Origin: an uncultured Actinomycetes bacterium
GTDB taxonomy: Bacteria; Actinomycetota; Thermoleophilia; Gaiellales; JAICJC01
DNA: 64,000 bases
NCBI GenBank assembly: GCA_963825325.1
Contig: CAWGSU010000005.1
Span: 119,736-183,735, forward strand
Reading direction: 5' to 3'
The notes under the pieces were generated by a model. The model was not told the origin of the DNA, made no database searches, and saw nothing but the letters and a program-made list of their open reading frames with translations. Both the position numbers and the translations under genes were made by a program. This document shows positions 2,356-3,840 of this stretch, piece by piece (the stretch's first letter is position 1; each line of letters opens with the position of its first letter).

Positions 2356-3840
2356 ATGGCGACCCATCGCAGCCCTGGGTCCGGCGACGATGAGCGCACC
2401 GTCGCGGTCGAGGTGCTGCAGCGCCTGCTGACCGATCCGGAGTTCCGCCAGGACTTCCGTCGCGACCCGGCGTCGGCCTGCCGCAACGCCGGGCTCGAGG
2501 CGGCTGCGGCCGAGTTCCAGGGCGGCGGAGCGGCGCTCTACACGCTCGAGCTGCGCGAGTCCAAGTCGAGCCTGGCCGGCGTGCTCATGGCCGCCGCCGC
2601 CGAGGGCGCCGCGGTCTACGAGTTCGCCGAGCACATCCGCCAGCACGTCGAGGGCGACGTCGCCGACATCGCCCGCCAGGCGATCGACGGCGCGGGCGCG
2701 AAGCACGTCGATGCGGCCGAGCACCTGCTCGCCGGGCAGGCGCCGGCGCCCCAGCCTGCGGCCGCCGCGGCGCCCGCAGCCGCCGCCGACGCGCTGGTGG
2801 ACCACGGGGCGGCCGCCCACGCCGCCGGGCTCGACCCCGGTCAGCACGTCGTCCACATCGCCTCGAAGTACATCGGCACGCCCTACGTCTGGGGCGGCGA
2901 GAGCCCCGGCGGGTTCGACTGCTCCGGCCTCGTGCAGTACTGCTTCAATCAAATCGGCGTGAAGCTCGAACGCACCACCTGGGACCAGGTGAAAGAGGGC
3001 CATGCCGTGCAGTGGGGCCAGTTCAAGCCCGGCGACCTGATCTTCTCGAATTTCGAGGGCCCCGGGGCGGGCGCGACGCACGTCGTCATCTACGCCGGCC
3101 ACGGTCAGGTGATCGCCGCGCCGCACACCGGGGGCCACGTCGAGTACGAGTCGGTGGACGTCTTCAAGCCGTACTTCATGGGCGCGCGCCGGGTCGTGCC
3201 CGACGCTCCGCCCGTCGGGATGGGCATGCCCGCGGTGAGCGCCGACCAGCACGCGCCGGCGGGCGGGACGCTCGGCCTGAGCGCCGTCCCGGCCGCCCAC
3301 TCCGCGCCGGCCTCGCCGAACGCCGCCGGCGTGCACCAGAGCGTCGGCGCGCACGGCACCCTCGGCGGCGTCGCCGCGGCGGCTCCCGCACCGGGGCACG
3401 GCGGCCTGCTCGACGGAATCATCGGCGCCTATCCGGGCGACCACGCCTCGCGCAACGCGATCGCGGCGTGGATGGGCGACGCCGCCCAGCGGGCGGGGCT
3501 GCCGCGCGAGCTGCCGGTGATGGCGGCGCTGGTCGAGTCCGGGCTCAAGAACGACAACTACGGCGACCGCGACTCGCTCGGCTTCTTCCAGATGCGCACG
3601 TCGATCTGGGATCAGGGCAAGTACGCCGGGTTCCCGCACGATCCCCGCCTGCAGCTCAAGTGGTTCATCGACGAGGCCCAGGGCCTCAAGGCCACGCGGC
3701 TGCGAGAGGGCGTTCACGGCTTCGGCACCGACCCGCACAAGTGGGGTGACTGGATCGCCGACATCGAACGCCCCGCGGCCCAGTACCGCTACCGCTATCA
3801 GCTCCAGCTCGAGACGGCCCGCCAGCTGGTCGGCGGCTGA
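2356..3840 (+). CDS. NHLP/Os1348-like leader + NlpC/P60 peptidase + lysozyme/lytic-transglycosylase-like domain protein
   Basis: N-terminal 'EVLQRLLTDPEFRQDFRRDPASAC'; NlpC/P60 'GTPYVWGGESPGGFDCSGLV', 'HVVIYAGHGQVIAAPHTG'; C-terminal 'MAALVESGLKN...DSLGFFQMR'; Ala/Pro-rich linkers. Confidence 0.8.
   Translation: MATHRSPGSGDDERTVAVEVLQRLLTDPEFRQDFRRDPASACRNAGLEAAAAEFQGGGAALYTLELRESKSSLAGVLMAAAAEGAAVYEFAEHIRQHVEGDVADIARQAIDGAGAKHVDAAEHLLAGQAPAPQPAAAAAPAAAADALVDHGAAAHAAGLDPGQHVVHIASKYIGTPYVWGGESPGGFDCSGLVQYCFNQIGVKLERTTWDQVKEGHAVQWGQFKPGDLIFSNFEGPGAGATHVVIYAGHGQVIAAPHTGGHVEYESVDVFKPYFMGARRVVPDAPPVGMGMPAVSADQHAPAGGTLGLSAVPAAHSAPASPNAAGVHQSVGAHGTLGGVAAAAPAPGHGGLLDGIIGAYPGDHASRNAIAAWMGDAAQRAGLPRELPVMAALVESGLKNDNYGDRDSLGFFQMRTSIWDQGKYAGFPHDPRLQLKWFIDEAQGLKATRLREGVHGFGTDPHKWGDWIADIERPAAQYRYRYQLQLETARQLVGG

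Follow-up and report, generated by a model that had tools for sequence, protein, structure and literature searches.

A leader-tagged peptidoglycan hydrolase and its paired intramembrane protease at a contractile injection system cluster in Thermoleophilia

Introduction

How contractile injection systems (CIS) of Gram-positive-type bacteria pass or act on a thick cell wall, choose their effectors and control their firing is the question raised by the locus described here. Few CIS effectors of such bacteria are known, all of them from Streptomyces. We analyzed a 64,000-nucleotide stretch of DNA (the window) from an uncultured Actinomycetes bacterium of the class Thermoleophilia (assembly GCA_963825325.1, contig CAWGSU010000005.1, positions 119,736 to 183,735 of the forward strand). 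It contains the gene of a peptidoglycan hydrolase with a leader-like N-terminus, which stands at the end of a CIS cluster and next to the gene of an intramembrane protease. The arrangement points to an undescribed, signal-gated arming or release of wall-cutting enzymes.

The pro-hydrolase gene (positions 2356..3840, + strand) encodes 494 residues, arranged as a leader module, an Ala/Pro linker, an NlpC/P60 domain, a second linker and a lysozyme-like domain. The G+C content at its third codon positions (GC3) is 0.94, in a window of 73% G+C. An initial annotation, made from the letters of the DNA, had described the product as a dual peptidoglycan hydrolase with a leader, transcribed from a -10 box of its own. 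Every sequence string that it quoted was found at the implied position in this open reading frame (ORF). The string EVLQRLLTDPEFRQDFRRDP corresponds to residues 19-38, LELRESKS to residues 64-71 and SLAGVLMAAAAEG to residues 72-84; Cys189 lies within DCSG (nucleotides 2920-2922), His242 within HVVIY (nucleotides 3079-3081) and Glu394 within ALVES (nucleotides 3535-3537), and GFFQ spans residues 409-412. The description of the protein itself is borne out, as far as profiles and models can tell, by a match to the NLPC_P60 profile, a predicted lysozyme-like fold and a resemblance to leader families. The protein has no signal peptide, neither Sec nor Tat.

The N-terminal module and its junction motif

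When residues 1-110 were searched against 1.84 billion cluster representatives, the module was found in 337 clusters (at 50% identity), of which 229 match at E<=1e-10, with protein lengths of 82-1445 residues; in the loci compared below, module-headed proteins reach ~1990 residues. The module is N-terminal in 213 of 218 matches, and where a locus has two or three tagged genes, these paralogues are near-identical over the first 95 residues and divergent beyond. Judged by its distribution among sequences, the region comprising the first ~95 residues is a portable modular domain.

In the AlphaFold2 (AF2) model, residues 9-55 (2380..2520, + strand) form a compact helical domain with pLDDT values of 81-93. 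This domain resembles the leaders of the nitrile hydratase leader peptide (NHLP) clan, both in family matches that stay under their cut-offs and in a profile comparison with hhalign, in which the module profile was aligned with a bona fide NF038399 peptide from another genome of the class (G140, see below) with a probability of 86% and an E-value of 5e-6 over 40 columns (residues 17-56). A flexible Gly-rich linker follows (residues 56-62, the QGGGAALY region; 2521..2541, + strand), whose pLDDT is below 50 at residues 60-62. The junction motif, T63-G84 (TLELRESKSSLAGVLMAAAAEG; 2542..2607, + strand), begins a long helix that extends over residues 63-97 (nucleotides 2542-2646) with a pLDDT of ~79, and is a candidate recognition and cleavage region.

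The consensus of the junction is TL(E/D)xRES(K/R)SSLAGVxMAAAxEG. Among 184 non-redundant sequences, T63 is kept in 176, R67 in 182, S69 in 183, G75 in all 184, A79 in 182, A81 in 181, E83 in 182 and G84 in 176, and the motif is the best conserved part of the whole module family. The initial annotation had proposed the boundary between LELRESKS and the hydrophobic stretch as a cleavage site, a proposal that would have been undermined by poor conservation of LELRESKS among homologues; since the motif is nearly invariant, this objection falls away. The residue at position +3 from Thr63 is aliphatic in 148 of the 184 sequences, which fits the pTxx(I/L/V) preference of FHA domains.

Two other readings of the module were rejected. 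NHLP leaders, as Haft is said to have described them in 2010, belong to short precursors with a Gly-Gly cleavage site and have a C39-peptidase ABC exporter nearby. Cleavage at Gly-Gly by this NHLP/PCAT logic does not apply here: the GG is unconserved (Gly56 and Gly58 are frequent, not invariant), there is no C39 ABC exporter, and no ABC transporter of any kind was found between the CIS genes and the kinase gene downstream. The hydrolase, with its 494 residues, also differs from the NHLP-clan precursors in not being short. A comparison with the WXG/LXG-like substrates of type VII secretion systems (T7SS), prompted by a hydrophobic-x-G turn and a YxxxE, fails because these positions are unconserved; an EssC-like locus is absent from the organism's own genome, save for a generic FtsK-type match.

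The same genome holds two PF14407-like matches that are not such leaders. One (L003) occupies the position of a nitrile hydratase alpha subunit, with a beta-like ORF beside it (by eye). The other (L002) is a weak match in a 109-residue ORF (L002 1321-1650, C1:366609-366938), which by eye overlaps the end of an ECF-type sigma-factor-like ORF and is unrelated to the CIS unit. In a close relative (L046 10096-10884; 86% identity over the module; ORF of 263 residues), the profile match of the tagged gene begins at position 29, as though its leader region had been frameshifted or misassembled. A 618-residue, extremely Gly-rich protein from a 9.9-Mb actinobacterial genome (L089 1369-3225, G574) has an NHLP-like N-terminus followed by LDPRLSKSSLFFG. 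Its full-length match to the module is weak (25 bits). The protein recalls IniB-type proteins and may represent a distant relative of the tag in a different setting.

The paired protease and the convergent kinase

The gene directly upstream (709..2346, + strand), separated from the hydrolase gene by 9 nucleotides, encodes an intramembrane metalloprotease of 545 residues, as identified from Pfam, NCBIfam and its motifs. The protein consists of a Zn-ribbon (709-783), an FHA domain (841-1053; Pfam E 2.9e-16), a winged helix like that of PqqD and of the recognition elements (RRE) of peptides that are ribosomally synthesized and then modified post-translationally (RiPPs; about 1171-1458), and a core of the M50/site-2 protease (S2P) type, all encoded on the + strand. 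The core matches Peptidase_M50 with 30 bits (above 27.2) and carries hydrophobic segments and both catalytic motifs, HExxH (HEVGH, 1723-1737) and NxxPxxxxDG (NLNPLLDRDG, 1996-2025). The best NCBIfam match of the protease is NF041824, the daptide RRE-S2P protease (150 bits, residues 165-529). The assignment of the winged helix is based on PqqD (PF05402), which is matched by the middle region of 28 of 43 orthologues, at best with 1e-5; the best PDB profile match of this region, a weak one (E 0.22), is the lasso-peptide RRE TfuB1.

The pairing of this protease with the module is conserved. For synteny we used one genome per species, with 158 module genes, and kept 78 loci with 10-kb flanks, nearly all from Solirubrobacterales and other Thermoleophilia and including five cultured Solirubrobacter species. 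The protease is encoded directly upstream of the module gene in 76 of the 78. With an RRE-containing M50 protease in this position, the junction is a credible candidate for a cleavage region, as the initial annotation had supposed. Within the flanks, baseplate J and P2-I proteins were each found in 69 loci, the spike in 54 and the LysM-tube protein in 53.

The module is present in 8 of 301 sampled genomes of the class, and orthologues of the protease (E<1e-100) occur in exactly those eight (Fisher p 7e-16). Because of this strict co-occurrence, we regard protease and module as an obligate pair. The CIS marker Pvc16_N occurs in 29 of the 301 genomes, namely in 7 of the 8 that have the module and in 22 of the 293 others (p 3e-7); in those seven, it lies on the same contig as the module, ~16-17 kb away. 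No complete module was found outside the class when 401 genomes of the phylum were sampled.

Convergent with the hydrolase gene is that of a 734-residue membrane Ser/Thr protein kinase (3848..6052, - strand; Pkinase E 1.3e-47), which is found downstream in 51 of the 78 loci and is a candidate input to the FHA domain of the protease. The stop codons of the two genes are 7 nucleotides apart (3838-3850), with no terminator-like hairpin between them, and the transcripts probably overlap at their 3' ends. The initial annotation had seen no adjacent immunity gene, and indeed no immunity-like ORF lies next to the hydrolase gene, the nearest stop codon being that of the kinase on the opposite strand.

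The catalytic domains

The NlpC/P60 (C40) endopeptidase domain comprises residues 174-279 (2875..3192, + strand). It matches NLPC_P60 (PF00877) with an E-value of 3.4e-25 and 88.5 bits, against a cut-off of 23, and covers model positions 1-105 of 105. The Cys-His-His triad (Cys189, His242 and His257) is invariant in an alignment of 21 homologues, as are Glu394, Ser395, Gly409, Phe411 and Gln412 of the C-terminal domain. The nearest relatives of the NlpC/P60 domain in PHROGs are minor tail and tail proteins of phages, the best match being phrog_329 (2.6e-30).

The lysozyme-like or lytic-transglycosylase-like domain (residues 341-494; 3376..3837, + strand) was identified by fold comparison alone, since sequence searches came up empty: no Pfam family was matched by this region at E<=10, SLT (PF01464) included, and a phmmer search of the PDB gave a single chance match and nothing relevant. 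An AF2 model built from 62 copies, among which 32 columns are invariant, has a pLDDT of 89 and a pTM of 0.86. Its top Foldseek match in the PDB is the core of a fungal muramidase (8b2e; TM 0.63/0.68, probability 1.0), and further matches include phiKZ gp144, MltE, MltC, Slt and goose lysozyme (GEWL). In the viral library BFVD, tape-measure proteins of Gordonia and Mycobacterium phages and SLT/GEWL proteins come out on top, and an Arthrobacter Lysin A is matched as well. The putative catalytic Glu394, with Ser395, closes helix 45-55 of the model, and GFFQ, part of the conserved GFFQM (residues 409-413), lies at the next strand; both elements are invariant in the 62 copies. The 30-residue active-site stretch (residues 387-418) matches a tape-measure family and an endolysin family of PHROGs. 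With respect to chemistry, the model is compatible with a hydrolase as well as a lytic transglycosylase, which are indistinguishable from the fold.

The invariant catalytic residues, the lysozyme-like fold and the matches to phage tail and tape-measure proteins make it credible that the protein is a wall hydrolase of virion-associated type with two activities, which would combine an NlpC/P60 endopeptidase with a lysozyme-like cutter of glycan strands. Like the virion-associated hydrolases of phages (lysozyme-like domains of tape measures, NlpC/P60 domains of minor tail proteins, Lysin A), it joins two bond specificities in one protein, and both of its domains have their best matches in actinophage tail or tape-measure proteins. 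Unlike them, it belongs to neither a tape measure nor a tail fibre, its gene follows those of the baseplate, the anchor and the protease, and it has a leader that looks removable.

Other module-headed proteins carry enzymes of the same kind. In a Pfam search of 79 longer module proteins, NLPC_P60 was found in 19, Peptidase_M23 in 7 and CHAP in 5; there was no other substantial match. Local profiles detected a lysozyme-like domain, an NlpC domain or both in 35 of 56 module proteins of at least 400 residues, selected without bias; the rest have CHAP-like or LAS/M15-like motifs (by eye). The domains identified behind the module are thus, by their sequences, peptidoglycan hydrolases only. In Solirubrobacter soli DSM 22325, a single protein of 1991 residues combines the module with three lysozyme-like domains, a CHAP and an NlpC/P60 domain.

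Many module proteins (P0141, P0137, P0152, P0244 and those of the L021/L032 type) also share an unannotated domain to which Pfam gives no match. Its pattern is DPRVxxVL...(SxH..G.GxD or HVQxxD)IxSVDGxxVxP...ARxLxxxL...RPxEIGxPWPI...HLHLxF, with LAS/M15-like His/Asp motifs that are kept in some copies and seemingly lost in others.

The injection system cluster and transcription of the hydrolase gene

The hydrolase gene closes a CIS cluster, most of which is located to the left of the window (genome C5:106-120 kb, + strand). The order of the genes there is Pvc16_N, sheath, gp19-type tube, a 542-residue repeat-rich protein, CIS_tube-LysM, GPD/gp5-type spike, baseplate J, P2-I and an 824-residue PASTA protein. 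The last of these is bitopic (genome C5:117968-120442), and its C-terminal end, recognized with Pfam, occupies 3..707 of the window (+ strand). It is composed of a Zn-ribbon (DZR), a cytoplasmic region, one transmembrane segment, three PASTA domains (E 4e-24) and a PD40 beta-propeller, and follows the baseplate genes in 71 of the 78 loci. By analogy with CisA of Streptomyces, described as a bitopic CIS adaptor (PMC12237407), it is a candidate for a wall-sensing membrane anchor of the CIS. The Zn-ribbon at its N-terminus is similar to the one in the M50 protease. The 542-residue protein (C5:110357-111985) is encoded in the position of a tape measure and has no Pfam match; it contains a three-fold repeat, GEAHHLEREGRxLRSRAW, as well as His-Val/Pro repeats, and could serve as tape measure or be a different cargo. 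DUF4157 was found in neither the hydrolase, the protease nor nine scanned upstream proteins.

One suggestion of the initial annotation was a wall-remodelling enzyme that serves a large secretion machine, and the position of the gene at the end of a CIS cluster fits it. The CIS itself, the RRE and FHA domains of the protease and the kinase had escaped notice, and the mechanism changes with them.

The leaderless transcription suggested by the initial annotation also gives rise to a reading in which the gene, independent and with no tie to its neighbors, encodes a secreted toxin against bacteria or a housekeeping, RipA-like hydrolase. The evidence for this was the hexamer TAGAAT (2344..2349, + strand), read as a -10 box. 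It is located six nucleotides before the ATG at 2356, and this position, exactly -12 to -7, suits a leaderless start; TAGAAT is unique in the window, hexamers of the form TANNNT are rare (43 on both strands of the 64 kb), and no Shine-Dalgarno sequence precedes the ATG. Public annotations, moreover, name the relatives merely 'NlpC/P60 family' or 'C40 family peptidase'. However, the hexamer contains, as its TAG, the stop codon that closes the protease gene, and it is unconserved: TAGACT stands in its place in a 97%-identical orthologue and TAGGCG in the next, and most other loci have GGAGG, with the stop codon 3-5 nucleotides before the start or overlapping it. Neither a two-hexamer promoter nor a terminator was detected between positions 1500 and 4500. 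A -10 box of its own is doubtful for the gene; the sequence is more simply read in terms of co-transcription with the protease gene, an internal promoter being the less likely alternative. The synteny with protease and CIS genes in 69-76 of the 78 loci, in many species, and the absence of a signal peptide also argue against an independent gene, and the module is missing from 293 of the 301 class genomes, which marks the gene as accessory rather than housekeeping. An independent toxin or housekeeping enzyme is thus very improbable.

Beyond the kinase gene lies an ORF of 135 residues (6074..6481, - strand) that has no match in Pfam or PHROGs; its identification as a PAAR protein is unsupported by either. 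The edge of the cluster is marked by a LuxR/GerE-type response regulator (6483..7139, + strand; GerE E 1.1e-13, Response_reg). GerE regulators flank 25.8% of extracellular CIS (eCIS) loci (PMC8213781).

Proposed processing of the hydrolase

We infer that the hydrolase is a pro-enzyme whose leader is bound, and cut near the junction, by the kinase/FHA-gated M50 protease, and that it provides wall-cutting for the CIS; we hold this to be probable, if only slightly so. The reading is favored by analogy, because here a protease of the same type as the daptide RRE-S2P enzyme adjoins a substrate built of leader, motif and helix. According to this proposal, the hydrolase would be made in the cytoplasm with the ~95-residue RiPP-style leader module in front, and the cytoplasmic RRE of the protease would bind the leader. 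The weakly hydrophobic helix after TL(E/D)xRES(K/R)SS would enter the membrane-embedded active site, and the leader would be removed at or near the junction, as MpaP does for daptides and SpoIVFB for pro-sigma-K. The FHA domain and the neighboring Ser/Thr kinase could tie this cleavage to threonine phosphorylation, in a manner comparable to PpkA/Fha1 in type VI secretion, and protease, substrate and kinase would form an accessory unit of a membrane-anchored CIS.

The released hydrolase might be ejected via the tube, like the tape-measure or tail lysin of a phage, or it might open the wall for firing or for the release of particles. Ejection is suggested by the position in the operon, the tape-measure-like domains and the precedents of Sco4256-4258 and Tme (see below), and wall opening by a unit that occurs without a CIS and by payloads that act on the wall only. 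The best fit for a wall-hydrolase payload would be a CIS anchored in the membrane and firing from the cytoplasm to the outside, which has been proposed in Streptomyces; by such a route the enzyme would reach the wall without a signal peptide.

Several observations weigh against this proposal. The family scores fall short of their curated cut-offs: 150 bits against the equivalog cut-off of 300 for NF041824 in the protease and, in the module, 36.9 against 40 for NF038399 (Os1348-family NHLP clan; residues 17-54), 29.1 against 34 for TIGR04509 (NHLP-related RiPP peptide) and 27.2 against 48 for PF14407 (Frankia_peptide); the leader-family match covers model positions 5-39 of 63 only. A fold search with the N-terminal model returned insignificant matches only (E>2), the top ones all being the RiPP precursor SonA. 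The locus contains no RiPP-type modifying enzymes and no transporter, and after a cut on the cytoplasmic face the enzyme would still have to cross the membrane, by a route that is conjectural. The unit is lacking in 22 of the 29 CIS-positive genomes of the class and hence is not needed for CIS assembly generally; on this distribution, the protease-module pair is an accessory of one CIS lineage. Conversely, a 100% complete genome (G017) has the protease, the kinase and a module-tagged hydrolase but neither sheath nor Pvc16_N, so the unit can exist without a CIS. Finally, the stretch that the initial annotation had called hydrophobic is unconvincing as a membrane span: the maximum of the Kyte-Doolittle average over 19 residues is 1.37 (residues 73-91), below the usual threshold of ~1.6, and the invariant E83-G84 lies within the helix. 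With its marginal hydrophobicity and the Glu inside, entry of this helix into an intramembrane active site is not assured.

The properties of this helix bear equally on a different explanation, in which the hydrolase would be a membrane-tethered autolysin. The helix would then be an N-in/C-out signal anchor (Sec/YidC), and the kinase-gated S2P would free the enzyme for lysis of the producer and CIS release or for local opening of the wall. S2P proteases normally cut membrane-embedded helices, and the charges suit an N-in orientation, with RESK ahead of the helix and a Glu-rich segment behind. The lack of an immunity gene is in keeping with a tethered autolysin, and so is the location of the unit beside two machines, mostly CIS and, in G017, an EssC-like/WXG locus; machine-associated wall hydrolases, such as EssH, VirB1, EtgA and FlgJ, are an established concept. 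A maximum of just 1.37 and the invariant Glu83-Gly84 are poor credentials for an anchor, for which a hand estimate on the Hessa scale gives strongly unfavorable insertion. A folded domain of 60 residues precedes the helix, and up to ~1990 residues would have to cross Sec on a very weak anchor. We consider a tethered autolysin quite unlikely.

In G017 (L092/L093, C11:225000-262000), the protease and the adjoining kinase are divergent, and a 681-residue protein composed of module, lysozyme-like and NlpC domains is encoded 15 kb off. Between protease and hydrolase there are an FHA-FtsK/SpoIIIE (EssC-like) ATPase, an FHA protein and, by weak matches, a WXG100/T7SS-signal-like protein. The C-terminal NlpC-like domain of this WXG-like protein shares 47-51% identity with the end domain that module-tagged proteins of tandem CIS loci carry. 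At the sequence level, this shows a polymorphic-effector logic, with one enzyme domain behind differing N-terminal trafficking domains, and the locus may be a type VII-like one that uses the protease-kinase-module unit.

The same logic supports the view that the hydrolase is a pure CIS cargo. The module would then be a loading signal for the tube lumen or the spike, and the M50 protease would serve in docking, in firing control or on another substrate. The gene is at the 3' end of a CIS operon, as are those of eCIS-associated toxins. Its conserved N-terminus, hydrophobic helix and variable C-terminus resemble in layout those of Sco4256-4258 of Streptomyces coelicolor, whose shared N-termini were proposed to function in loading and without which the tube lumen is empty (PMC10066040). 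Tme of S. davawensis, a CIS effector of 2247 residues with hydrophobic helices, shows that an actinobacterial CIS can load very large proteins (PMC11126660), and the lysozyme-like domain is similar to those within tape-measure proteins. A loading signal leaves unexplained the RRE of the protease and the strict co-occurrence of module and protease (8 of 8 genomes), and it does not account for G017, with module and protease and no CIS, or for orphan module genes away from any CIS (L052). We regard a pure cargo as unlikely, though not implausible.

The pro-enzyme proposal would also accommodate a smaller version of the system in G140 (L094 8628-10711, C6), where a 71-residue, Os1348-family NHLP-clan peptide is encoded directly upstream of a paralogous RRE-S2P protease (31% identity). 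This peptide scores 63 bits with NF038399, over the cut-off of 40, and is homologous to residues 17-56 of the hydrolase. From the sequences, the pair of peptide and protease looks like the ancestral state, from which the enzyme-sized substrates would be derived. The G140 protease has, by eye, a C-terminal cyclic-nucleotide-binding-like region, that is, a different regulatory input.

A more specific version of the proposal is tentative, and we would sooner doubt than expect it. The leader/RRE logic of RiPPs would have been co-opted for whole enzymes, and upon phosphorylation by the sensor kinase, possibly of Thr63, the protease would clip the leader from hydrolases of 50-200 kDa and so license their ejection through a membrane-anchored CIS firing from inside a monoderm cell, or the opening of the wall for it. 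That Thr63, with the aliphatic residue at +3, is the FHA ligand is a speculation with little probability. If the scheme were true, it would amount to a switch for lysis or secretion that is programmable and can also be fitted to a type VII-like locus.

Relation to known systems

Daptides provide a close comparison. In their biosynthesis, MpaP, an intramembrane site-2 protease with a fused RRE, takes the leaders off precursors in which a conserved acidic motif, ELExMEAP, is followed by an aliphatic core (bioRxiv 10.1101/2023.03.08.531785). The protease described here likewise has an RRE followed by an M50 core, is encoded next to its presumed substrate and has a daptide protease family as its best NCBIfam match; the substrate likewise consists of a leader, a conserved acidic motif (TLExRES(K/R)SS) and an aliphatic, Ala-rich helix. 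A true small NF038399 peptide beside a paralogous protease, in the class-mate G140, extends the likeness to the Os1348-family peptides of the NHLP clan. In contrast to daptides, the substrate runs on into an enzyme of 400-1900 residues rather than ending after ~25 residues, and here it ends in a lysozyme-like domain; modifying enzymes and an ABC exporter are absent; the protease has an extra Zn-ribbon and FHA domain; and all family scores are under the curated cut-offs.

Two regulatory precedents concern the cut and its control. SpoIVFB acts on pro-sigma-K by regulated intramembrane proteolysis without site-1 cleavage, and removal of the N-terminal pro-sequence activates the protein. An S2P-family enzyme would remove an N-terminal pro-sequence here too; the protein activated would be a wall hydrolase instead of a sigma factor, and recruitment would apparently be through the RRE. 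In type VI secretion systems, the kinase PpkA and Fha1 gate a contractile machine post-translationally by threonine phosphorylation. A Ser/Thr kinase and an FHA protein are likewise found at a contractile machine here, with the difference that the protease itself bears the FHA domain as a fusion.

Wall-hydrolase toxins of eCIS, their N-terminal marker DUF4157 and the GerE regulators were already known (PMC8213781). Like actinobacterial CIS effectors and eCIS-associated toxins, the hydrolase has its gene inside a CIS cluster or at the 3' end of one, and a GerE regulator adjoins the cluster. Compared with the published descriptions of such effectors, it and its relatives also have a common N-terminal region, a hydrophobic helix and variable C-termini, are sometimes very large, and have a proposed action on the envelope. 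The module differs from that of eCIS toxins in being NHLP-leader-like, not DUF4157, and the C-termini are peptidoglycan hydrolases only, with no ricin, nuclease or wide range of toxins. The obligatory pairing with an RRE-FHA-M50 protease and a kinase also sets the module proteins apart from actinobacterial CIS effectors.

In the literature searched, no paper joins contractile injection with M50, FHA, site-2 protease, NHLP or nitrile hydratase leaders, and nothing was found on Franean1_4349 or on the combination of daptide, M50 and leader. RRE-S2P leader peptidases, wall-hydrolase eCIS toxins and N-terminal effector markers are each known separately. What is new is the combination of a leader of RiPP type that heads enzymes of 50-200 kDa, an RRE-FHA-S2P protease and a kinase, all attached to a CIS.

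Implications

Since public records say only 'NlpC/P60 family', both the lysozyme-like domain and the module deserve family models. For the question of how CIS of Gram-positive-type bacteria deal with the wall, select effectors and time their firing, this type of locus, found in no fewer than 78 species-level Thermoleophilia genomes, cultured Solirubrobacter strains among them, offers a defined set of parts: a conserved tag of 95 residues, a dedicated intramembrane protease with RRE and FHA domains, a sensor kinase, and a payload class that consists solely of wall hydrolases. Tag and protease together are also a potential tool for the controlled release or loading of proteins. If the protease cuts the tag, this would be the first case found in which RiPP leader/RRE recognition serves large enzymes, and also the first threonine-phosphorylation-gated intramembrane proteolysis tied to a CIS.

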